Source: Candidatus Hadarchaeota archaeon (GTDB taxonomy: Archaea > CAYQAE01 > CAYVLA01). From it: a stretch of DNA of 64,000 nucleotides. Where the stretch lies: NCBI GenBank assembly GCA_964621445.1, contig CAZUNO010000003.1:96001-160000 (forward strand), written 5' to 3'. This document shows, in pieces, positions 4,472 to 55,936 of the stretch. Below the pieces are notes generated by a model that searched no databases, was not told where the DNA came from, and worked only from the letters and a program-made list of their open reading frames with translations. Each line of letters begins with the position of its first letter. The first letter of the stretch is position 1. Both the position numbers and the translations under genes were made by a program.

Positions 4472-7155
4472 CTAATGACCGATGGACTGGGTAATGGCCG
4501 GGTTCAAACCCTTGAACTTGGAGAGCCATTGAACCCTTTCCTCGGTTAGCTCCCTTACCAGTCGATCCGCCTGCTCCTCGGTATAGAAACGGTCCAGGTC
4601 ATACCTAGAGATATCGGTATCCGGGACCTCCTCGGGAACCAGGACGTTGAAGTACTTGCCCTCCTTCCAGTTGATCTCCCCACGGGCTATGGCCCTAATT
4701 ATGGCTGCCGACTCCGGAATCCCGATATCCTCGGCCTCCTGGTGGATTATCCTTCTACCATCCGAGGTCACTTTGGCAATCTCTCCCACCCCGCCGGTAT
4801 TGAATAGGTATAGCTGTAGCTTGTCCTGATGCCTCTTAGCGAAATCGTAAACGAAGTTGCCTTCCTGAGAAAAATCACCGACTATGAAGGGGTTCATCCC
4901 AACCACCCTAACCGACTGGCCGGCCTTGGTGGGGTCGCTTCCCGAGGTCTCGATCGATTCGCCAAGCATGAAAGCGGCCGCTGCCTGTTCTGGGGTTAGC
5001 TTGGAAACCGGGGGCACAACCGTGTTCCGTCTGGTGACGAACAGGATTATCATACCGTCTAGTTCATTCAGAGGAGGAATGTCCATGCTCTCGCTACAGT
5101 GCTCCTTGAAATCTTCTCTCTGCATTATTCCCCGCCCATTTCCGGTCAGGGTCTGATCGCCGAAGGAAACATTTCCCCGGTAATCAACCAGTACGTTCTC
5201 GAATATGGCCCGGGGCTTGGTAACCGCCTCGTATATTAGGGGCAGGATGCCGGGGTCGACGCCCTCCGTCTTGAGGTAGAAACCTGTTTCCGGCCCGTAG
5301 GCCTGACCGTTTGGCCTCAGAAATACCACATCATCCTGCACTATCTCGATGCCCTCCCCCTTGCCGTGGAGTCCATGATCATGGCATGTATGGGTGGTCT
5401 TCCCGGTTGCGGTGAGGCCAAAAATCAACATGCTATATCTCTTAAGGTCGCCGCTTTTCCTACTTCTGGCTCGCAGGATCTTTGACCCCGCGTGAAGGCC
5501 CAGCATGCCTCTCTGTTTGGCCTCCCACATGGCCATCCGTAGAAATCCCTTCTTATCCTCGCCGTAGTAATCGGTTCCCAGGATATAGGTGATGCCTATC
5601 TCCGGGAATACCAGGACCTGTCGGTCCTTTTCCTGCCACTCGGGTATGTGCAGAAGCTGGAGAACCGTATCACCCTCGCCCTTTTTGGGAGGAAGTCCCT
5701 GGCTCACCATGTAAGCCAGCCTTATCATCTCCCTTCTCTGGGTTGAAATGTAGAGCCTGCAGGTGGGAGTAAAGGAATCATTATCCCCCATATCGCGCTC
5801 CACGCAGACGAAAGGAGCCTTTTTCACGTAATCATGGACGTCTTTCAGGGTCTTGGGCAGGTTTCTGAGTATTCGTTTCTGCTTATCGTTGAGCTTGGTA
5901 CTCATGACCTCCTTGCTTCCGATGGAAACGGTGAGGGGTGCACTTCTATTCTTGACCGTGGAAACGAAACTGTAATTGTCGAATTTCGTCTTGGTTCCGT
6001 GTTCGTAGGCCATCGACCTCAGCTCATCGATCTCTGGCCGCATGACGTTCCTGCTGCCCTCCAGCTGCTCCATGGTATCCTTCACGAAGCCAAGGTCCGC
6101 GCTCTTAATCATCTGCTCAACCTCGGGGACCTCCTCTCCCTCCTGGACCTGGGTGAGGTACTCCCCGGACTCGATTATCTCTCTGATCCTCTTTTGGACC
6201 TCAAGGACCGGCTGGGCGGTGTTAACCTTGTAGCAGGAGGCAAACTGCAGGATGTCCTTGTAGAAACTGGTCTGAAGAGCCATTCTGTCCTCGGTCCTCA
6301 CCAGCCAGTGAGGGTTGAAGAAGGGGTCATCGGCCTTCCTCATAGCATCAATAGCGTCCTTCTGGCTCAGCCTGGAACAGACCCATCCCTCATTAGGATG
6401 TCTCTCCGTGATGAAGATAAGCTTGATACGGGTGGTGTCCAGGAACTTCTCCTGGCCACCTATCCACCAGGGATCAAGAATGAAATAGCCATCGGCTCTT
6501 TTGCAATCGTCAATGAGCTCCTTCATACTGGGATTTATCTTGGTGACCTCTTCCTTGACTAGGAACTTTCTCTCCGATACCAGCGTGGATATTCTACCGT
6601 GTTCTCCTCCCAATCTTTCAACATAGATCCAGTCATTGGAATGTATCCTTGCATTATCCAGCTCAAGTAGGAGATAGGTGTGGGTAGACTTTCCTACCCC
6701 CCTTTCTCCGGTGATCACCACGCCCTCCCCATTCACGTCCAGGAGGGAGCCGCGGATGAAGTGCATGTCCTTTTGTTCCTCTGAAACGTATATAGCCAGG
6801 CCCAGGGCTATTGACCTGATATCCTGATAGCTTGTCTTGTTAATGGTGACAGCGGTCTTTGTCTCTCCGTGGAAGGCGGCGGATGGTTCGGTGTCCGGGA
6901 CCCCGGTGACGGCGTAAACGACACCGTGGGGCCTCGTGGTATGCTCGTGTTCCAACCCGGGAGCTGCAAACCAGTTCTCACGCCAGAAATCGTCCAGATG
7001 TCTGTCATTGGTCCTTAGCTGTATGTATATGCCGTTAATATTGCATTCCAGACGTAGATCTCCCTGCCCATATACATCTCTGCTTGTCTTACCAACTCAT
7101 TTCTCTCGGCGAGGGAGATACCCGTCTCAACCAAATCATTGTGACCAACGGGCAT
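4472..7155 (-). CDS. pckA: ATP-dependent PEP carboxykinase fused to an N-terminal HPr-kinase/PCK-like P-loop domain; apparent 1-nt frameshift near 7041
   Basis: C-terminal half has GTDYYGEDKKG, LHAG, FGLTATGKTT, DDVV and NPF; N-terminal half has GERGVGKST and HSNDW. ATG at 7155 follows GAGGAG but is in a different frame from the main ORF, which stays open upstream of the track start (NINGIYIQLRTNDRHLDDFWRENWF). Confidence 0.8.
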
Positions 7156-7203
7156 CTTGCATACTCCTCTGGGTCAAGGCCTATAGAGGGCTAAAAAATA
7201 TAC

Positions 7204-8523
7204 TCATGATGAACGGCTCAACTCCACCTCAATCAGATTTCTAGTCTTTTCCTCTTCAGGGACAATCACCCGGCCCTTGATCAGGAATTGATCTATATCC
7301 TGGAATTCTCCCTTGAGCCAGGGGTGAAGGACGGCGGACATGTTGAAACCGTATTTTAAATCCGGTTTCAGATTTTGGAATTCTAACCGGCCGAAATCGA
7401 TAAGTTCCTCGTAGGGCCTGGAACTGTTTATTACCCCGTTTCCGTCCATTTTGGTTCCGTTATGAAAATCCATGAAGGGTATACCCGGCGTACCGACCCA
7501 AACTCCCCTCAGCTTCTTGTCCCGCTTGTCCCATTTTACTATGAACTTGCTCGGTATGAGAAGATGTGAAGTCCGGTTACTATACAAGCCGAGGTGCTCA
7601 TAGGCCTCCGAGAAGTCCAGGGAAACCTGTTTCTCGTTCTCGGCCAGGCCACTGTCCTCTTCGACGGTAATCATGTCTCCCGGCGCTTCTGATGCCCTTT
7701 GATACGCCTTTTCAACTATGGGCAGGGTTTTGGCTAGCTCCAACAGGTCCTCTCCCGAATAATTTGTGAAAGCGGGATATCGGAAATAGCCCGTGAATTC
7801 TATATCGACCCGTTCCACCTCCCTTGGTACGTCGTTTACCAGCATTACCGAGAATGGCTTTGCCTCGCCCGGTGATAGCTCCCTGGGGTATTGATAGTCC
7901 GTTATGCGGTCAGGCCTCTTTACATAATAATAACGGAAGGCAAGTATGGCTCCAGAGAAAATCAGGCCTAGGATAATAAGAACCGCGGTCCTCTTGTCCA
8001 GGATTAACGGCTCCCCTTTGGTCATACGATTTATGGTGGATATCTCCTTCACATCACGTTTGATATTTCTCTTAAGTCCGGAAAGTCCATGGTTCCTGGC
8101 CACGTTAACCACCCCGGCCAGGGCGATAATGCCAGCCCAGATTATGCCGTAGAAGTTAATCATGTACACAATCCCACTGATACCTCTCCAACCTACGTCG
8201 AGGAACTCCAGTACTACCAGTATTCGGAGGAAAAGGTAAAAACCTACCAGCGAGCCTATGGTGGCTATCCACCAACCTATCCTCCTCGACAATTTTGCCA
8301 CTAGATTCTGAATAAAAATTGGAAAGAAAATTCCCGAATAACCAATAGTCAAGCCCGCCTGAATGAAGAGGAAGATTATCTCCCCTGCATCGAACCCCCG
8401 GGTCTGCAGAAAGGAATAGATGAATACAAGGAGGATTATGGCGATATATAGAAAGAATAGCCTATAGTATCCCGGTAGGTAGCTCAGCCCTTCGAACCAT
8501 CTCTTGATCCTACTCAAAAACAC
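7204..8523 (-). CDS. Multi-pass membrane protein with soluble C-terminal domain, unknown function
   Basis: About 5 hydrophobic segments followed by a ~240 aa beta-rich domain; last gene of the ABC operon. Confidence 0.7.
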   Translation of the reverse strand: MFLSRIKRWFEGLSYLPGYYRLFFLYIAIILLVFIYSFLQTRGFDAGEIIFLFIQAGLTIGYSGIFFPIFIQNLVAKLSRRIGWWIATIGSLVGFYLFLRILVVLEFLDVGWRGISGIVYMINFYGIIWAGIIALAGVVNVARNHGLSGLKRNIKRDVKEISTINRMTKGEPLILDKRTAVLIILGLIFSGAILAFRYYYVKRPDRITDYQYPRELSPGEAKPFSVMLVNDVPREVERVDIEFTGYFRYPAFTNYSGEDLLELAKTLPIVEKAYQRASEAPGDMITVEEDSGLAENEKQVSLDFSEAYEHLGLYSNRTSHLLIPSKFIVKWDKRDKKLRGVWVGTPGIPFMDFHNGTKMDGNGVINSSRPYEELIDFGRLEFQNLKPDLKYGFNMSAVLHPWLKGEFQDIDQFLIKGRVIVPEEEKTRNLIEVELSRSS

Positions 8524-8535
8524 ACCAGATTGGTG

Positions 8536-9360
8536 TCAATCTTCTATTCTAACCCGGGTGCCATCACGCATTACCACGTGACTGCTCGGAGATGCCCCAA
8601 CTAGACGGAACTCCGTACCAAGTGAGGGATATGACTCGCCAAGTACCAGATCCTCGCCCATGAGGTCGTTCTTTACCTTGTCAGCGATCTTCCTCACCAG
8701 CGCCGATGGCAAGCCAAATGGAGATTTTAGGACAACGACCGTGGCGTCCTTCTTCTCCTCGTCTGTACTGACTTCCTCCTCGCCCCTGGCGATTTGTAGC
8801 TTTCCACCGCACTCTATGCAGTACCTCTCGCTCTCATCTAGACACTCGAAGCAGACCCTTCTTCCGCATTTTAGGCACTGGAACCCCTTGGTTGGTTGAC
8901 CACAGATAGAACAGGTGGTACAGTCGATGCACCTGGTGTCATCAGACCGGAGTTCGCCGTTATTATCGTAATACTTACCCTCGCACTTTGGTCCAAACCA
9001 TCTTCCGCAGCTGAAGCACTGTCTCAGAGCCAGCTCCACGTTGCACAGCTCACATATCTGTGCTGCCCCAAAACTTCCAACTATCTTTTTGGACCTGAAC
9101 TTGAAAATCTGGCCCCCTAAAGCTATCCCCACGCCGAAAACCATGGGTAGCCATATCCGCGGAGACCATACCTTGACCATACTGAACATGAATAGGCCGG
9201 TTGCTATGAGAGCCCCGCCTAGGAATAATAGAACACCAGGTATAGTCGTATTTAGTAGGCCCATGGGGCCGCCCTCGCCACCTTCAGCACCGCCTTCGCC
9301 TCCAGCTCCGCCGCCTCCGATGCCGCCCATGCCACCTGCCATTCCTCCTCCGCCCATCAA
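8536..9360 (-). CDS. Gly-rich, 2-TM, multi-CxxC Zn-finger protein with C-terminal CDC48 subdomain-2-like module
   Basis: Gly/Met-rich N-terminus, two TM helices, repeated CxxC (B-box-like) motifs; C-terminus ATVVVL..VKNDLMG..LGE..FRLVGASPSSHVVMRDGTRVRI. Confidence 0.75.
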   Translation of the reverse strand: MMGGGGMAGGMGGIGGGGAGGEGGAEGGEGGPMGLLNTTIPGVLLFLGGALIATGLFMFSMVKVWSPRIWLPMVFGVGIALGGQIFKFRSKKIVGSFGAAQICELCNVELALRQCFSCGRWFGPKCEGKYYDNNGELRSDDTRCIDCTTCSICGQPTKGFQCLKCGRRVCFECLDESERYCIECGGKLQIARGEEEVSTDEEKKDATVVVLKSPFGLPSALVRKIADKVKNDLMGEDLVLGESYPSLGTEFRLVGASPSSHVVMRDGTRVRIED

Positions 9361-9426
9361 TCATATCACCAATGACGGTATAACTTCACCGAACTTTACT
9401 CAATAATGTAATCGAATTAAACGAGA

Positions 9427-10446
9427 TTACTCCGCAACCATCAACCTCGTATCACGCATAACTCTCACCAAGCCCGATGGCTCGGTCTCAGCTATTTCAA
9501 AATCCGCATCCAGCAGAGATATCTTGTCGCCCACCCTCAACTTCCTGGCATACAGAGCATCCAGAAGGTCATCCTGAATCTGATCCAAAATTTCCTGGGT
9601 CATCTCTGTACTAGATGTAATACTGATCTGCTCGGCCTCGCTGAGGTCCTCCCTCTGAACCGACTCGCCGATCACCGCGCCGTCTCTTAGGTAGGTGATT
9701 ATATCAACCACATCAGCGACCTTCGGGTCGTGGGTAGCAACGATAACCGTCGTGCCCTCCTCCTCCTGTAGACTCTTCATTAGATCGATGATCTCCAATC
9801 CGGTCTTGGTATCCAGGTTACCGGTCGGCTCATCTGCCAGGACCAGATCCGGGCTGTTTACAAGTGCCCTAGCGATTGCCACTCTCTGCTGCTCCCCTCC
9901 GCTTAGCTCCGTGGGCCTGTGATCAATTCGATCTCCCAGACCAACTCGGTCGAGAAGCTCCTTAGCCCGATCACGCCTCTCCTCTTCACCAGCACCGGCG
10001 AAAACCATAGGAAGCTCCACATTCTCAATAGCAGTCAGAACAGGTATCAGGTTGTAAATCTGGAATATGAAGCCGACGTTCTCCTGTCTCAGCTTCGAAA
10101 GGTGGGCCTGGTCCATGCCGGTTATCTCTCTACCGGACATGAGTACTTTACCGCTAGTCGGGGTGTCCAGGCCGGATATCATATTAAGGAAGGTGGTTTT
10201 TCCGCTACCGGATGGTCCCATATAGGCCACGAACTCTCCCCTCGATATCCTCGCATTCACGCTATCCAGGGCCTTAACCTCTAGTGTCTCATGGCCCATG
10301 TCAAAAATCTTGCTAAGGTCCCTGGTTTCTATTACGAACTGCTCTACCCCTTTCTTCTCTTCTGCGGGGGCGATCGCCTTCTTCTTCTTTGGGGATTTAT
10401 CCTTTCCCTCCTCTTCTTCAAGGTCTTCTTCCTTTTTACCACTCAT
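9427..10446 (-). CDS. ABC transporter ATP-binding protein (LolD/MacB-type) with C-terminal CDC48 subdomain-2-like extension
   Basis: [33 protein letters not shown] and ATHD motifs; extra tail RKLRVGDKISLLDADFEIAETEPSGLVRVMRDTRLMV. Start placed at ATG 10446, overlapping the permease end. Confidence 0.9.
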   Translation of the reverse strand: MSGKKEEDLEEEEGKDKSPKKKKAIAPAEEKKGVEQFVIETRDLSKIFDMGHETLEVKALDSVNARISRGEFVAYMGPSGSGKTTFLNMISGLDTPTSGKVLMSGREITGMDQAHLSKLRQENVGFIFQIYNLIPVLTAIENVELPMVFAGAGEEERRDRAKELLDRVGLGDRIDHRPTELSGGEQQRVAIARALVNSPDLVLADEPTGNLDTKTGLEIIDLMKSLQEEEGTTVIVATHDPKVADVVDIITYLRDGAVIGESVQREDLSEAEQISITSSTEMTQEILDQIQDDLLDALYARKLRVGDKISLLDADFEIAETEPSGLVRVMRDTRLMVAE

Positions 10447-12808
10447 ACATGAACGCCTCCACGGGCTCCATTTGCGCTGCCCGTCTTGAAGGATAGATTC
10501 CTGCAATAACCGCAACTAACACAGCGAGTCCAATTCCGGATATCCATCCGAGTACCATCGTAGGCATAGGCAGAGTTAGTCCCTGCCTCGTGAAGAAGAA
10601 TGCTAATGAAGTAACCGTTCCTAGGATGCACCCCAGCATACCTCCAAGTGCGCCAATTATCCCGGCCTCGGAAAGAAAGACCTTCATTACCTCTCCAGGT
10701 GTCGCTCCCACGGCCACCATTATCCCGATCTCCTTGGTCCTCTCCAGAACCGATGTCAGCATGGCGTTAGTTATTCCCAGAGCGCCGACGACTATGGCGA
10801 ATACAACGACCTGAAGTTGATATGATGCTATATCATATCCTGGCGAAAGTTGTCTCTGGAAAGCCGAAATCACCAGCAAATTCACTAGCATTCCAATACC
10901 AACGGTGATCCCCAGCGATGTCAGAAGACTCCTAAGCTTCCTCTTCCCCAAGTTCCTCGCCGCCATAGAGGCGTAATACGAACTCTTCACCATCCGGGAA
11001 ATAGATCCGAATACCCGGCCCTCGTTGGGACTTATTGCCCACTCTCCCGCGATCGCCTTTCTAGGCTCCAGTGACCCCGCCAACCTGGCTGGGAAAACGC
11101 CTGCTGCTACACTGACAAAGGTACCGATTGAAACCGATGCCATAATCCATAATGGGTTTATCTTTAGAGCGATGTCGGGAATGAAGGAGATAAACTGGGT
11201 CCCGGCTGAAAGCAGCAGACCGGTGAGATATCCTCCAATTCCCCCAATGAGCCCTATGATCAGCAGTTCGAATATATACATATCCATAATATGCCAGACC
11301 TCGGCGCCCATGGCACCCATGATGCCCACCTCTCGAACCCGTTCATAAATTGACAGCACGGTCGCATTCATCACCACGATGACTGCCACGGCCAGGGTAA
11401 TTAGAACGGACTGCATATGGGCGAGTTCCGTGGTCTTCACCTGGGCGGCCACGATCCTCTTTCCACCCTCGGTGGTGACCACCATTTTGGGTATCTCGGT
11501 GTTCATATCAGCCTTGCTGGCCACGTTCTCCGCTAGTTCGGCCGTATTCTTAACCCGGGCTATGTTATCGTCATCCGGGAAATTGACCTGAACCACCGCT
11601 TCCTGAACAACTTCCTTTGGGAAGGAGATTATCTCCTTCGCCGCCCTGTAATGGACATATATGTTCTTATTATCCTTTTTTCTGGGCGAGGCAAAAACTC
11701 CGACAACTCTCAGAAACGAATCTCTCACCACTGCTCCTCCCAGACCTCCCTCGGTTCCCCGGGAAAGTAGAATGAGATCACCGTCATCAGGTCCCACCTC
11801 GCCAATCCTCAGGTCGTTTGCAATCTCGACTCCTATGATGGCCGGATATACCGGTATATCGTTATAATCATCCTGTTTCCATTCCTCTTGGTCCAAGTAC
11901 TCCCCATTATCAATTACTAGCTCAATCTTTTGTCCACTGACCTCAGGAGAATAGCTGAACCAGAGGCGATACTGCAAAGTAACCTCTTCGGTTTCCTCAT
12001 CATATTCCTTGACCTTGACCTCAAGGTTGTATTGTCTATATTCCCTGTATTTCAGGTTGGGTATCTGTGTAAAACTATCATCCGTTATCTTGAACTCCTC
12101 GATATCCATAGATTTCAGTGGTGCTCCGGCCTCTCCATAAACACGTAGGCCGAACTCCCCCTCCGGCTCCGAGGGGATTACCATAAAGCTTAGTTCCGCA
12201 TTAAAACCATGAGTTACCTTCTCTTCAAGCCCGCCCGTGACCTCCAGAAGGCGGTCCTTTCCTCTAATTATGGAGCGGTTTAGGTTCTCCAAGGGGTCCC
12301 AGTAGGGAATTCCCGTGGTCTGGTTTACTCTCGGAGACCTTATCTTAGCCTCTGCCTCAGGGTCTATGCCTATTAGATTGATGAAACCGGGATAATCAGT
12401 TACCGGCATATTACTAATCGAGGGATGCTGAATTGTAAACCTCTCCCCGAACTTTCTAAGCAGGAGTTGTTCCCCGTTATCATCCGGGGTACCTATCCTA
12501 ACCGCCACTACATCGACCCTATCGTCGGCCTTTAAATCCTCAACCAGTTCTAGGGGCACCCGCCCAAGCCTAATACCTGACCTAACCCACTTGTTTGCTT
12601 CCACTACCAGGAAATCTCCGAAAAAGGGAAATGGCTGTCTTCCTGAGTGAAAACTCGTAATCTGAGCACTTATGGTGTCCTCGACGGAGACGATCACCAC
12701 AAAGCAGGCTATTGCTAAAATGACGCTCAGTATGGTAATTACGGAGCGGATACGCCTTCGTCTAAAGTTCTTCCAGGCTATTCGAAACATTGGGTTTTCT
12801 AGAACCAC
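10436..12808 (-). CDS. FtsX/MacB-type ABC permease with two permease units and one large extracellular domain
   Basis: AWKNFRRRRIRS and ARNLGKRKLRS amphipathic starts, two ER.(R/K)E(V/I)GIM.A.GA motifs, two P(A/S)R.A..(L/M)EP ends. Confidence 0.9.
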   Translation of the reverse strand: MVLENPMFRIAWKNFRRRRIRSVITILSVILAIACFVVIVSVEDTISAQITSFHSGRQPFPFFGDFLVVEANKWVRSGIRLGRVPLELVEDLKADDRVDVVAVRIGTPDDNGEQLLLRKFGERFTIQHPSISNMPVTDYPGFINLIGIDPEAEAKIRSPRVNQTTGIPYWDPLENLNRSIIRGKDRLLEVTGGLEEKVTHGFNAELSFMVIPSEPEGEFGLRVYGEAGAPLKSMDIEEFKITDDSFTQIPNLKYREYRQYNLEVKVKEYDEETEEVTLQYRLWFSYSPEVSGQKIELVIDNGEYLDQEEWKQDDYNDIPVYPAIIGVEIANDLRIGEVGPDDGDLILLSRGTEGGLGGAVVRDSFLRVVGVFASPRKKDNKNIYVHYRAAKEIISFPKEVVQEAVVQVNFPDDDNIARVKNTAELAENVASKADMNTEIPKMVVTTEGGKRIVAAQVKTTELAHMQSVLITLAVAVIVVMNATVLSIYERVREVGIMGAMGAEVWHIMDMYIFELLIIGLIGGIGGYLTGLLLSAGTQFISFIPDIALKINPLWIMASVSIGTFVSVAAGVFPARLAGSLEPRKAIAGEWAISPNEGRVFGSISRMVKSSYYASMAARNLGKRKLRSLLTSLGITVGIGMLVNLLVISAFQRQLSPGYDIASYQLQVVVFAIVVGALGITNAMLTSVLERTKEIGIMVAVGATPGEVMKVFLSEAGIIGALGGMLGCILGTVTSLAFFFTRQGLTLPMPTMVLGWISGIGLAVLVAVIAGIYPSRRAAQMEPVEAFMYEW

Positions 12809-12832
12809 GAGCTCCCACTCCTTTTTAGGAGT

Positions 12833-12934
12833 CTAACCTCTAACGTAGGCCAGATAACCGATGACCAGGATTATCAATACCCATATTATTATCAGGATGG
12901 TATTGAAGCCGGAAACCATTTGTGTAAGTACCAA
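12833..12934 (-). CDS. 33-aa single-TM microprotein (not in ORF track)
   Basis: TTG start after GGAGGG; MVLTQMVSGFNTILIIIWVLIILVIGYLAYVRG*; fills an operon gap. Confidence 0.55.
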   Translation of the reverse strand: MVLTQMVSGFNTILIIIWVLIILVIGYLAYVRG

Positions 12935-12946
12935 TTCATTGCCCTC

Positions 12947-13078
12947 CTATTCTCCCCAAAGATAGCCCCAGAGTATGATGTACAGGTGAAAGAACCCATA
13001 TGACAAAAGCAAGATGAAGAATATCTTGGAGGCGACTTTAATCTCGGCCGGACCACCGACTTGTGTTAACGGTATCAT
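12947..13078 (-). CDS. 43-aa single-TM microprotein (not in ORF track)
   Basis: ATG after GAGGAG; MIPLTQVGGPAEIKVASKIFFILLLSYGFFHLYIILWGYLWGE*. Confidence 0.65.
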   Translation of the reverse strand: MIPLTQVGGPAEIKVASKIFFILLLSYGFFHLYIILWGYLWGE

Positions 13079-13091
13079 TATGACACTCCTC

Positions 13092-13295
13092 CTACTCTTC
13101 CTCCAAGCTTTCTCGTACCTTTTGTTCGTAATACCGCTGCTTCATCCTCCGCTCATCATACCAGAAGATGAGCACTCCCACTAGGGCGAGTACCACCACC
13201 GCAAGCATCAACAAAAGGTCCATCCATAGGAAACGGGTCCCAGTAAAGATGGGCTTGCGCATCGCGGGCAATAATCGCGTGATGACGCTTATCAT
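13092..13295 (-). CDS. Small single-TM membrane protein
   Basis: One long hydrophobic helix and a charged tail; co-oriented within the operon. Confidence 0.65.
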   Translation of the reverse strand: MISVITRLLPAMRKPIFTGTRFLWMDLLLMLAVVVLALVGVLIFWYDERRMKQRYYEQKVRESLEEE

Positions 13296-13308
13296 ATTCT
13301 ATCGCCTC

Positions 13309-14109
13309 TTACCACAATTCTCCTCTCTCTGCCTTTTCTTTCAACCGGTTCATCATATCAACGGTCAGGTAAAGGAATACCACGACCAGAACTCCAATGA
13401 CCAGGAACGCAGTTACACCCCAACCTGGCTTACCAAAAAGAACCGAAAACTCCCCTTGTTCCGGGATATTAGATGTTATGTGCCATAGAATTGCTACTCT
13501 ACCCGTTGCGGGGTCATATGACTTTCGGCCGTTGAGCGTCGGGTCCCAGTCCTTTGGTACATAATCCAGGGGCGGGAAGACCTTTACCATAAGCTCCACA
13601 ACATTGGCCTCGAATATGGGTGTGTCGAAATCAATCCGGGTATTATCGCCCGTTCTTCCCAAAACCTGGTCTCCAAGGGTCTTTTCCCCGACCCTGGAAA
13701 TACCCTCTTCGGCCGGAAGGTCATAGATGTAGTACTTCATTATTATGACGAAGTCGTCTCCAGCGTAAATCTTCTCGGGCAGGGTGATCTCGATTATCGT
13801 CTCGTTATCGCTCTGAATAATTCTCTTCGGTATTACCTTGGCAGCCGTGGTCTGAACCTGGGTATCGTTGGCATTGGGCATTTCGACCTCCCCGTAGGGC
13901 AGGGTTACGTTGATCTTTTCAACAAACCCCTCGAAGGCGTAAAGGGTTATCGCCTGAGAAACGAAAACTTGCCCTCCTCCCTCGTAGACCGTAATCTCAA
14001 AAGACTGAGTCGGATAGTAATAACTAACGGCTGACGCATTCTGAATCAGGAAAACGCTGACCAGAACTATGAAGATACACCCTGAAAGCTTTGAACCCTT
14101 GCCCATCAT
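13309..14109 (-). CDS. Secreted, C-terminally membrane-anchored beta-rich protein; first gene of the ABC operon
   Basis: Signal peptide ending in ASA, beta-strand-rich body with N-x-T sequons, C-terminal TM plus basic tail; AGGAGG SD. Confidence 0.75.
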   Translation of the reverse strand: MMGKGSKLSGCIFIVLVSVFLIQNASAVSYYYPTQSFEITVYEGGGQVFVSQAITLYAFEGFVEKINVTLPYGEVEMPNANDTQVQTTAAKVIPKRIIQSDNETIIEITLPEKIYAGDDFVIIMKYYIYDLPAEEGISRVGEKTLGDQVLGRTGDNTRIDFDTPIFEANVVELMVKVFPPLDYVPKDWDPTLNGRKSYDPATGRVAILWHITSNIPEQGEFSVLFGKPGWGVTAFLVIGVLVVVFLYLTVDMMNRLKEKAERGELW

Positions 14110-14288
14110 AGGAACCTCCTCAAGAATACACCCGGTTCCGGGCTACAGTTAGATGGCCGCGCATCCTGCTGAATCTATATAAATGTTTTGTGATAGCTAA
14201 AAACGGGCCGTATTAACGTTCTATAACCTAACAAGACATTAATAAGATCCTAAACGGCTAAAGATGAGCCCTTCGGAGGTTTTAGCCT

Positions 14289-15806
14289 TTGGGAAAGCCT
14301 TTCGTCGGTATTCTAATTCATCCTTGGGATGTAAAGGAGGAGGGAATCGGCAGCGTAACGGAAACGCTCTCTGGTTTTGGGATCTCGTCCGTTTTCCTGG
14401 GAGTAAATGCATCCGCCGAGGACCATCCACCGCAGCCCATCGATGCCCGGCTAACCCATAACCCTAAGAGAAAGAGGTATGTTTCGGAGGAAGGCAGGTT
14501 CTATTATGAGATTGACCCCTCCTATCACCCGAACTCAGTGGCCATGCCCAAGAGAACCTCCGATTCCGATCTAATCGGTTTCGATGTTCTGAGGGATACC
14601 GAGGATTTCTCGGAGGCCGGTCTCTCGAGATTCGCCTGGCTCACATCGCTTCACAACGGGCAGATGCTAGATGATGGACAGGAGCTTGCCCTGGTGAATA
14701 TAATAGGTGAGGCAGATAGAAACTGGATGTGCCCCAACAACCCCAACGTTGCCATAGAGCTTCTTGAACTGATAAACGAGATGCAGGGACGATACGATCT
14801 AGAAGGTGTCCTATTGGATAATTTCTGGTGGAAATACCCCCATACATTCATGCACTCGCTAGAATCGGGTATGAGTTGTTTCTGCGAGCATTGTCGCCAC
14901 AGGATGGAGATTGAGGGAATCGGCGTACGGGATGTCAAGAGGGCGCTATCACAGATATGTCGGAGGGCCAGGAGCCTTGATCAGGGGGATATCGCCAGGA
15001 TTGGAGGAGCTAAGACCGACCAATTGCTGAAAATAGTTGAACTTCCAGTGGTAGAGGGAGGCGGCTACTCGGATATATTGAACGTTCTTTTCGAGGACCC
15101 CAAGATGAGGGACCGGCTCCCGGAGCTTGCTGAAAACGATCCCCTCGGCATATTCCAGTGGTTGATGGATCATCCCGTCATACTGGATTGGCTGGAATTC
15201 AAGTCAGACGCGCTTTATAGGTTACTGGAGTCGGTTTACTCCCTTGCTAAAAGCAATGACCCCGATTTCCAAGTAGGTCTTGGTATGTGGTCTCCCCGAT
15301 CCTCGTGGAGCGTTGGCCAGAAGTATGTAAAGCTAAAGGATGCCTGCGATTGGATGATGCCCATGTTCTATCACCGGATCTGGGGATGGTATTCCACCTG
15401 TGTGGCCGAGGAGCTCTTCGAGATAATTCACCCAAAAACACCTAGCATCTTCGCTTCCTACAAGGATATCCTAACGGCCTGGTTCAAGCTTGCGGGATAC
15501 GCTGGTAGCAATCTAAGGTCAAAGATCGTTAATGGCCTTTCCTCGGATCAGATGAAAAAGGAGATAGATAGGTCGCGAGAACTGGTAGGCCCGGGGTTTC
15601 CGCTTTACGCTGGTATACAACTCTGGGAACCCGGAAGCAAGATACCTCATCCCCAGGAAGCGGCCGAGACCACGCAATTGGTTCTGGAGTCCGATGTACA
15701 GGGAATCATAGTCCAGGCCTACGGCTGGATATTCATGCCCAACCTACAGGCTTCCTCAAAGGTTCTCAAGCGATTTATCCAAACTCCGCCATCGCCTTCT
15801 CCCTGA
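14289..15806 (+). CDS. Putative glycoside-hydrolase-like TIM barrel (DUF187/GHL10-like)
   Basis: WMCPNNP, YDLEGVLLD, SCFCEHC and DWMMPMFY patterns. Confidence 0.6.
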   Translation: MGKPFVGILIHPWDVKEEGIGSVTETLSGFGISSVFLGVNASAEDHPPQPIDARLTHNPKRKRYVSEEGRFYYEIDPSYHPNSVAMPKRTSDSDLIGFDVLRDTEDFSEAGLSRFAWLTSLHNGQMLDDGQELALVNIIGEADRNWMCPNNPNVAIELLELINEMQGRYDLEGVLLDNFWWKYPHTFMHSLESGMSCFCEHCRHRMEIEGIGVRDVKRALSQICRRARSLDQGDIARIGGAKTDQLLKIVELPVVEGGGYSDILNVLFEDPKMRDRLPELAENDPLGIFQWLMDHPVILDWLEFKSDALYRLLESVYSLAKSNDPDFQVGLGMWSPRSSWSVGQKYVKLKDACDWMMPMFYHRIWGWYSTCVAEELFEIIHPKTPSIFASYKDILTAWFKLAGYAGSNLRSKIVNGLSSDQMKKEIDRSRELVGPGFPLYAGIQLWEPGSKIPHPQEAAETTQLVLESDVQGIIVQAYGWIFMPNLQASSKVLKRFIQTPPSPSP

Positions 15807-16500
15807 CGTCAGGGGGAACCTCTTCGATTTTGTCTACCTTTCCATCCTTAAGGTAGACCATTCTCTCTGAGAGATGGGCCAGGCGGGGATCGTGGGTGGT
15901 TATCACAAATGTCTGTTCCTCATCCTGATTCAGTTGTTGCATCAGGGTCACGATGGACTTCCCGGTGTTGGTGTCCAGGTTACCAGTTGGCTCATCGGCA
16001 AGAACGATAGACGGGCTGTTGGCCAGGGCCCTGGCGATTGCAACTCTCTGCTGCTCCCCTCCGCTTAGCTCGGCGGGTCGGTGATTAATCCTGTGCCCGA
16101 GCCCAACCCTTTCCAGGAGCTGACTGGCCCTATCCTTTCTCTCGTCCTCCGGCTTACCAATCAGTTCCATGGGGAGTTCAACGTTCTCCATGGCGGTGAG
16201 GGCAGGGATGAGATTGAAGAACTGGAAAATGAATCCGACTTTCTCACGTCTTATAAGGTAACTCTCATCGAAGTTGGCCGTGATGTCCTCATCATCAACA
16301 ACCACCCGGCCCTTGGACGGCCTCCCTATACCACCCATCATGTTGAGCAAGGTGGTCTTGCCGGAACCGGAGGGGCCAATTAGGCTGATCATCTCGGAAC
16401 GGTTGATTTCGATATTAACGTCGTTGAGGGCGTGCACCTCCACTTCACCAAGCATGTAGGTCTTCCATAGATTTTCGGTCCTCACCACGGCATCGGCCAA
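15775..16500 (-). CDS. ABC transporter ATP-binding protein (LolD/MacB-type)
   Basis: [34 protein letters not shown]. Confidence 0.92.
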
Positions 16501-55565: not shown

Positions 55566-55862
55566 TTACTTCTCTTCCTCCAGCGGTGCACCTGCATAGC
55601 TTGCTGCGGACAGCCTTTCTCCCTTTCGAATGCCGAAAAGCTTCATCGTCCGTTCATCGATGCCAATGGAGTTGGCGGGGAGGTAATCATCCTCAACGGC
55701 CTTGACCAATAGGGTTCCTCTCTTACCGATAATCTCTATGGTACCGCCGGGCATGATCTGTAGCCTCTCCAGGTCCTCTCCTCTCATCTTCACCGTGTTG
55801 ATCCAATCCACCGGCTGGGCTTCGATGTTGATTACGCCTTTCTTTTCCTCCTCCTCAGACAT
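55566..55862 (-). CDS. Stand-alone CDC48/VAT N-terminal double-psi beta-barrel subdomain
   Basis: VKMRGEDLERLQIMPGGTIEIIGKRGT..IGIDERTMKLFGIRKGERL follows the duplicated psi-barrel pattern of CDC48 N-termini. Confidence 0.72.
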   Translation of the reverse strand: MSEEEEKKGVINIEAQPVDWINTVKMRGEDLERLQIMPGGTIEIIGKRGTLLVKAVEDDYLPANSIGIDERTMKLFGIRKGERLSAASYAGAPLEEEK

Positions 55863-55936
55863 TTCCATCTCCCGGTAAATGTGGGCGCTTCTCATATATA
55901 GATATGAGGGATTCCCTCCCCGGGTGAAGGAAAACG

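Follow-up and report, generated by a model that had tools for sequence, protein, structure and literature searches.

Our study describes an eight-gene operon on the minus strand, at 7204-14109, of a 64,000-nucleotide stretch of a Candidatus Hadarchaeota archaeon (hereafter the window; contig CAZUNO010000003.1, positions 96,001 to 160,000). In this operon an ATP-binding cassette (ABC) ATPase and the neighboring zinc-finger membrane protein both end in a beta-clam of the CDC48_2 type (PF02933), the second subdomain of the CDC48 N-domain. Sequence profiles confirm this assignment for both tails, and for the ATPase tail it is also confirmed by the predicted fold. We propose a lineage-specific type VII (MacB/FtsEX-like) ABC machine in which the zinc-finger protein would be a dedicated, cytoplasm-facing cofactor of the ATPase and the clams would be docking or regulatory modules, a reading to which we give about an even chance of being correct. 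Neither the domain nor the transporter class is new; their combination, a type VII ATPase with a CDC48-type clam together with a zinc-finger-clam subunit, appears to be undescribed. The first-pass annotation of this DNA did not recognize the fusion from known systems, and we found no description of it in the literature either, supplementary files aside. The features that carry the argument are the following:

10436..12808, minus strand: permease of 790 amino acids (aa), two FtsX units in a single chain (Pfam and hydropathy)
9427..10446, minus strand: ABC ATPase, 339 aa counted from the ATG, with a charged N-terminal extension, a nucleotide-binding domain (NBD) and a C-terminal clam
9430..9636, minus strand: beta-clam of the ATPase, CDC48_2-like (hhalign against true CDC48_2; AlphaFold and Foldseek)
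8536..9360, minus strand: zinc-finger protein of 274 aa, with a Gly-rich N-terminus, a transmembrane (TM) hairpin, a Cys-rich region, a charged linker and a C-terminal clam
8809..9054, minus strand: Cys-rich region, 15 Cys at residues 103-184, mostly as CxxC pairs in two tandem similar units
8539..8751, minus strand: beta-clam of the zinc-finger protein, CDC48_2-like (hhalign against true CDC48_2 and against the ATPase clams)

The beta-clam modules and their relation to CDC48

The two window tails resemble each other directly (BLASTP, 29% over 59 residues, E 2e-5). A PF02933 search of the window's genome revealed, on another contig, a second clam-bearing ATPase of 343 aa followed by a second zinc-finger membrane protein with a clam. 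This type-2 operon comprises permease, ATPase and zinc-finger protein genes only, with none of the small TM genes of the type-1 operon in the window, and both operons are present in 5/5 genomes of the phylum. The two operons of these five genomes yielded 20 modules, which align over 72 columns without internal gaps, and as a reference for true CDC48_2 we used a profile of 15 regions taken out of bona fide CDC48/VAT proteins, which came from 13 archaeal genomes. The joint profile of the 20 modules matched this reference with an hhalign probability of 96.5% (E 7.8e-10, 67 columns), as did the ATPase tails taken as a family (97.0%, E 9.4e-11, 67 columns) and the zinc-finger modules taken as a family (94.2%, E 1.1e-7, 50 columns), while the negative control, the module profile against the CDC48_N double-psi barrel, gave 0.4%. 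The single window tails also matched true CDC48_2, at 79.5% (E 1.5e-5) for the ATPase and 68.7% (E 4.5e-5) for the zinc-finger protein. Between the two families, the ~70-residue modules matched at 98.6% (E 4.8e-16, 71 columns), so that the operon clams are closer to each other than either family is to CDC48. Thus, the CDC48_2-like pattern that the first-pass annotation had read in both tails is borne out. Its range for the zinc-finger tail was right, and its range for the ATPase tail was too short because the first strand and helix had been left out; the module begins ~50 nucleotides (nt) further upstream, at 9636 and not at 9585.

Taken alone, the window tails found no match to Pfam CDC48_2 at E<=10, and searches with single tails among PDB sequences returned nothing relevant, which would suit a chance pattern in unstructured tails. 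We regard this explanation as next to negligible, since it is refuted by the match between the tails, by the profile matches and their control, by individual matches of 13 of the 20 modules to PF02933 at E<=10 (best 6.6e-5), by the predicted fold, and by the recovery of the clam in further genomes. No other Pfam family was matched by more than one of the 20 modules. The tail of the paralogous 343-aa ATPase reached 21.8 bits against PF02933, or 22.5 bits together with neighboring stretches, for a gathering cut-off of 22.4. When run over 401 archaeal genomes, the module profile found a full-length clam in CDC48/VAT-length frames of 61 further genomes (E 2e-9 to 9e-6). Against PDB its best match was the PH1500 N-domain (E 0.008), followed by p97 N-domains at E ~0.6. 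The AlphaFold model of the window ATPase tail, built with the 20-module alignment, has a pLDDT of 83.3, and Foldseek, a check that had been called for at the outset, placed PH1500-N, p97-N (TM-score 0.74-0.79 on the query), PEX1-N and VAT-N on top for this model among PDB structures, as expected of a CDC48_2-type fold. By its homology to the ATPase clams, the zinc-finger tail would adopt the same beta-clam fold.

The modules are therefore homologous to the ~70-residue clam of the CDC48/p97/VAT N-domain (Nc, PF02933) and to the stand-alone PH1500 clam, and share their fold as predicted, but they stand in a different setting. No CDC48_N or AAA match to Pfam was found in the operon clam proteins, in which the clam comes after an ABC NBD or a zinc region instead, and the arrangement of a whole CDC48/VAT N-domain protein, with a double-psi barrel, then a clam, then AAA+, is absent: the clams sit at the C-terminus of an ABC ATPase or within a zinc-finger membrane protein. 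For the relatives, the only domains in the precomputed Pfam annotation are ABC domains. The operon clams also form a sequence group separate from that of CDC48 clams. In a 78-column tree, an alignment too short for fine detail, the CDC48 clams split from all others (99/94) and the zinc-finger clams grouped together (86/94). The invariant module residues A, G, F, P, V and T belong to the structural core common to CDC48.

It had been suggested at first that the clams couple the transporter to CDC48/VAT, or that they complete an N-like domain with a stand-alone barrel protein encoded at 55566-55895 (minus strand, 109 aa), for the quality control of envelope proteins. Besides the homology of the clams to the CDC48 N-domain, this suggestion could draw on the weak double-psi-barrel signals of the barrel gene and on its presence in the three family relatives. 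We nonetheless consider it very unlikely. The three CDC48/VAT-length genes of the genome are unlinked to the operon (contigs C9, C42 and C17, the window being on C3), the modules come without a double-psi barrel, and they cluster apart from the CDC48 clams. As for the barrel, it lies 42 kb away, its match to CDC48_N is weak (Pfam 20.3 bits for a cut-off of 35.1, E 6.5e-4; hhalign 12.8%) next to one to Molydop_binding (E 3.4e-4), and a search with this query did not find it in G004, the only genome of the class from another family, although G004 has both clam operons. Neither the coupling to CDC48 nor the partnership with the barrel is thus supported. The barrel protein has a 38%-identical paralogue in the same genome (contig 7) and was found with this query only in family f1.

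The transporter core and its zinc-finger partner

The permease matched Pfam FtsX in two stretches (E 5.3e-36) and came just under the cut-off of MacB_PCD (26.7 bits for 27). Eight TMs are predicted, by the Kyte-Doolittle scan used for all TM counts in this study, and a ~430-aa extracytoplasmic domain (residues 41-468) follows TM1 in the first unit, where the second unit has a short loop only. Its closest relatives among solved sequences are MacB (5nik, 5lil), the pneumococcal MacB-like permease 5xu1, YtrF, LolC and LolF. The ATPase matched ABC_tran (E 6.3e-35), and its best NCBIfam matches are MacB, LolD, YbbA, DevA and FtsE. Across 18 aligned sequences, its Walker A, signature, Walker B and H-loop residues do not vary. 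Because the 221-position LolD model of NCBIfam stops at residue 258, the last ~80 residues are an addition to this core. The ATG from which we count the ATPase sits after a GGAGG site, and the listed open reading frame (ORF) begins instead at an upstream TTG. Over ~35 residues the N-terminus of the type-1 ATPase (10342-10446, minus strand) is K/E-rich and of low complexity in family f1 only, and this extension is not in G004 or in the type-2 proteins.

Both marks of a type VII system were thus found, namely, an FtsX 4-TM unit whose TM1 and TM2 flank an extracytoplasmic domain and a MacB/LolD/FtsE-type ATPase with intact catalytic motifs, in line with the MacB/FtsX-type ABC operon first annotated. 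Judged by sequence, the system is a member of the type VII (MacB) superfamily, yet it is none of its named systems: the NCBIfam equivalog scores all fall below their cut-offs (LolD 240.5/307.75, FtsE 211.3/264.85, MacB 246.8/966, LolCE permease 64.8/362.45). It shares with MacB, LolCDE, FtsEX, BceAB and YbbAP the FtsX-type 4-TM units, the large outside domain after TM1 and a separate ATPase of MacB/LolD/FtsE type. As in BceB and YbbP, described in the MacB review as fused double permeases with separately encoded ATPases (PMC5985334), two permease units stand in one chain and the ATPase is encoded apart. It differs from the named systems in having 8 predicted TMs and not ten, in the C-terminal domain that its ATPase has beyond the LolD, FtsE, DevA and YbbA models, and in its zinc-finger subunit, of which no counterpart is reported for MacB, LolCDE, FtsEX, BceAB or YbbAP in the literature searched. 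Near the operon, in the relatives too, lies a gene for a tail-less MacB-type ATPase of 241 aa (15775-16500, minus strand), which shares 56% identity with the clam ATPase over its NBD; it has no adjoining permease gene, a divergent 505-aa gene lies between it and the operon, and it could serve as the second ATPase of the asymmetric double permease.

The zinc-finger protein consists solely of parts of the interaction type, namely, the TM hairpin, the tandem Cys-rich units and the clam. In the window it has one strong and one weaker hydrophobic segment, and its relatives have two clear TMs. Twelve Cys of its Cys-rich region are invariant across 16 sequences, and the two units hold 7 (first) and 8 Cys. 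Tandem CxxC pairs of similar spacing are found in LIM, RING and other binuclear zinc fingers (Prok-RING_2, DZR), but the matches to these families are either below threshold (Pfam Prok-RING_2 20 bits for a cut-off of 22.4; DZR E 0.11) or biased by Cys (best PDB match of the region's profile, the FHL2 LIM domain, E 2.6e-4 with a strong Cys bias of 15.4), and the first unit here has only 7 Cys. The region thus looks like a binuclear-type zinc module whose kind is unsettled. In the type-2 paralogue, a third Cys unit follows the clam. The ATPase is cytoplasmic, as zinc-Cys domains generally are, so that both clams and the Cys-rich region have to lie in the cytoplasm. At the other end of the protein, ~30 residues of [F/M/I]GG repeats form the N-terminus of the type-1 proteins of family f1 (9262-9360, minus strand); this Gly-rich stretch is absent in G004 and in all type-2 proteins.

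Good evidence that the ATPase and the zinc-finger protein work together is provided by a natural fusion of the two, a metagenomic protein of 711 aa (P0027). Its residues 16-289 match the window ATPase (36%, E 2e-55), reaching into the clam, and residues 338-638 match the type-2 zinc-finger protein end to end (27%, E 1e-40). The fusion has four TMs of its own and is on record as two sequences, one residue apart, on 4 contigs from two sources. Moreover, the ATPase and zinc-finger genes are adjacent in 10/10 permease-ATPase-zinc-finger loci (the two paralogous operons of five genomes), at a spacing of 66 nt in the window and 11 nt in the paralogue and with a 4-nt overlap in G004. The ATPase gene also comes after the permease gene in 10/10 of these operons, overlapping it in the window and in G004.

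Operon layout, conservation and spread

The eight co-oriented genes are densely packed, with intergenic gaps, from first to last, of 13, 13, 12, 24, -11, 66 and 12 nt, the negative value being the overlap of the ATPase start with the permease stop. A GGAGG-like site lies upstream of most of them; none is evident for the last, 439-aa gene. Beside the permease, ATPase and zinc-finger genes, the operon and its flanks hold the following features:

14176..14183, minus strand: TATA-box-like element TTTATATA, 67-74 nt 5' of the first ATG of the operon, read from the sequence
13309..14109, minus strand: surface-anchored protein of 266 aa, with a signal peptide, a ~200-aa ectodomain (4 N-x-S/T sequons), a C-terminal TM and a short charged tail
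13092..13295, minus strand: single-TM protein of 67 aa (ORF and hydropathy)
12947..13078, minus strand: single-TM protein of 43 aa (ORF and hydropathy)
12833..12934, minus strand: single-TM protein of 33 aa (ORF and hydropathy), with a 42-aa equivalent at the same position in G004
7204..8523, minus strand: protein of 439 aa, 5 predicted TMs followed by a 248-aa domain with 5 N-x-S/T sequons
7193..7198, minus strand: T6 run directly past the stop codon of the last (439-aa) gene

This gene content, an anchored secreted protein, three small single-TM proteins, a permease, an ATPase, a zinc-finger protein and a multi-TM protein, agrees with that first annotated, as ORFs and hydropathy show. We infer that the eight genes form one transcription unit, for which the TTTATATA box at 14176..14183 would be a promoter element and the T6 run at 7193..7198 a possible archaeal terminator. 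Neither the 266-aa nor the 439-aa protein matches a Pfam or NCBIfam family. Only close homologues of the former were found (15 proteins, 65-97% identical). The 439-aa protein, whose 248-aa domain is probably outside the cell, has relatives at 46-47% identity in the three other genomes of the family (G001-G003), where the 67-aa protein is 81-94% identical; G004 has a weak match to the latter.

The full order of the eight genes is kept in these 3/3 family relatives. In G004 the layout is equivalent: the first gene encodes a 301-aa signal-peptide protein with a C-terminal anchor (BLASTP E 0.004 to the 266-aa protein) and the last a 162-aa multi-TM protein without detectable similarity to the 439-aa protein. 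The absence of the fusions and of the gene order from related genomes, which would have told against the operon as first annotated, is thus not what we observed.

Outside the phylum, a scan of 396 archaeal genomes with the module profile gave no strong match (E<=1e-20) and no clam tied to an ABC ATPase or a zinc finger, five weaker matches in short frames of 254-502 aa being left out; a weak match in G019 (548-aa frame, E 4.9e-4) was dropped as unrelated after inspection of the frame. Among 1.84 billion cluster representatives, 33 proteins matched the profile at E<=0.001 and were sorted by Pfam and inspection into 3 ABC ATPases with a clam tail, 1 ATPase::zinc-finger fusion, 8 zinc-finger-clam proteins, 3 short pieces, 2 VWA-clam proteins, 3 Usp-clam proteins, 7 short proteins with CDC48_N and CDC48_2 or CDC48_2 only, and 6 long repetitive proteins. 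The last six (P0028, P0030, P0037, P0038, P0046 and P0048), with their many partial stretches, were taken as spurious. In the VWA and Usp proteins from metagenomes (P0039, P0050, P0042, P0045 and P0049), this clam subfamily is joined to the N-terminus of the former and to the C-terminus of the latter; the NCBI records of the VWA-clam proteins name Thermoplasmatota or Thermoplasmatales. Short proteins that combine CDC48_N with CDC48_2 are P0033, P0034, P0044 and P0051. In G004, a 62-bit CDC48_2 match in a 349-aa frame (contig 11, ~14903-15127) may likewise mark a CDC48 N-domain protein without AAA+. G002 carries on contig 55 (3435-4274) a stray third type-1 zinc-finger-clam gene of 279 aa, 73% identical, which adjoins a divergent gene for a 177-aa Cys-rich protein.

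Two neighbors of the operon keep their place in three relatives. At 4472-6955 on the minus strand, an 827-aa protein combines an N-terminal P-loop region like the HPr kinase C-terminal domain (E 9.5e-6) with a PEP carboxykinase (ATP) domain (E 1.7e-48). At 14289-15806 on the plus strand, divergent from the operon, is the gene for the protein of 505 aa, which matches glycosyl-hydrolase-like 10 weakly (E 2e-4).

Possible roles of the clams

In the model that we favor, the zinc-finger protein would face the cytoplasm and serve the ATPase as a stoichiometric cofactor. The clams, of which the ATPase dimer has two and every cofactor one, would be docking modules that hold this cofactor beneath the nucleotide-binding dimer, and docking, through clam-clam or clam-NBD contact, would gate the ATP cycle or report on it. 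That cycle would in turn be passed through the FtsX helices to the outside domain, which could act on the surface proteins encoded with it: the three small TM proteins, the 266-aa protein and, of the 439-aa protein, the outside domain. In this model the clams would be borrowed domains with no link to CDC48.

The closest functional parallel of the zinc-finger protein may be SweD and SweC, which the SweDC study describes as cofactors of FtsEX in the membrane whose intracellular domains matter for function, the suppressors mapping beside the FtsE ATPase domain (PMC6705773). According to the MacB review, BceS interacts with BceB directly, and its response needs an active BceA ATPase (PMC5985334). 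The analogy of the zinc-finger protein with SweD/SweC of B. subtilis and SteA/SteB of C. glutamicum, both membrane cofactors of FtsEX, is functional only: there is no kinship in sequence or domains, theirs being HTH and LysM-like domains, and they are bacterial and act with peptidoglycan hydrolases. On the ATPase side, the importer ATPases MalK, MetN, ModC and GlcV have an extra C-terminal regulatory domain, which lies beneath the NBD dimer and serves to bind regulators or ligands. Their tails are TOBE/OB or ACT-like domains on importer ATPases, while the domain here is a beta-clam on a type VII ATPase.

Several points weigh against the cofactor model. We know of no precedent for clam-clam pairing, the clams of p97 and PH1500 not being described as pairing; the clam-clam and cofactor-ATPase contacts are ones that we infer, and the roles given to the outside proteins are read from gene order alone. 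No RNA runs covering the locus were listed where we looked for them. The stray zinc-finger-clam gene of G002 has no ATPase or permease nearby. Finally, no FtsX permease was found in the 14-kb stretch around the fusion (tblastn, best E 0.58), so that the ATPase and zinc-finger pair may be able to work without this permease, and the fusion gene (L118, 4036-6183) lies between two tyrosine-recombinase (integrase) genes, near a Prim-Pol/helicase gene.

This setting of the fusion looks like that of an integrated mobile element, and together with its four own TMs it could argue that ATPase-clam and zinc-finger-clam constitute a self-contained, permease-independent membrane module, maybe with a conflict or exclusion function borne by a mobile element, which in this lineage would simply have been joined to MacB-type permeases. 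We think this unlikely, as the ATPase follows the permease in every operon of the five genomes, with overlapping genes in the window and in G004, and as its NBD is of the MacB/LolD/FtsE type. Furthermore, PADLOC gave only generic ABC and LolE-TM matches, and the viral contig collection yielded neither the fused gene nor any relative of the fusion protein or of the metagenome protein P0031. The fusion itself was seen in one context, on a contig that ends 4 kb upstream of its gene.

A more serious, if still tentative, alternative to the cofactor model is that the clams bind clients or adaptors as in the CDC48/p97 N-domain, both recognizing one common short linear motif, be it in a substrate or in a third partner, and that the ABC motor extracts, inserts or remodels what they hold. 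Candidate ligands would be the Gly-rich N-terminus of the zinc-finger protein itself and the tails with which the membrane proteins of the operon reach into the cytoplasm. The clam has the fold of a known peptide- and adaptor-binding domain; the SHP motif binds the clam lobe, and our Foldseek matches include complexes of p97-N and CDC48A-N with SHP-motif partners (5b6c, 5glf, 9uw1). The [F/M]GG repeats at the start of the type-1 zinc-finger proteins of family f1, the charged tails of four operon proteins with one TM in their mature form, and the use of the same clam subfamily on VWA and Usp domains, as suits a general binding module, all agree with this alternative. Nevertheless, G004 and all type-2 proteins lack the Gly-rich N-terminus, and the type-2 operon does without small TM genes. 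Moreover, a binding site is unreadable from the invariant residues, which are the structural core shared with CDC48.

A quite unlikely extension of client binding would make the operon an ABC-powered counterpart of eukaryotic membrane-protein extraction. The clams on the ATPase and on a RING/LIM-like membrane protein would capture clients or cofactors by linear motifs, with the [F/M]GG repeats of the zinc-finger protein as one ligand, and the pulling or remodeling of surface-anchored proteins would fall to the ABC motor. If this were true, archaea would have solved extraction once with an ABC engine that uses the recognition domain of CDC48.

The family is very small and mostly confined to one poorly known phylum, which limits its immediate reach. 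Nearly all known type VII ABC systems are bacterial, and the cytoplasmic control of their ATPase is an open question for which SweDC, SteAB and BceS are the few known handles. Under the cofactor model that we favor, this locus would be an archaeal system of this kind whose control or adaptor parts can be read in the sequence: a clam on the ATPase, a matching clam on the zinc-finger subunit, and a natural fusion of the two. Beside this role, our study adds ABC ATPases, zinc-finger membrane proteins, and VWA and Usp proteins to the AAA+ proteins in which the CDC48 beta-clam is known to be used.

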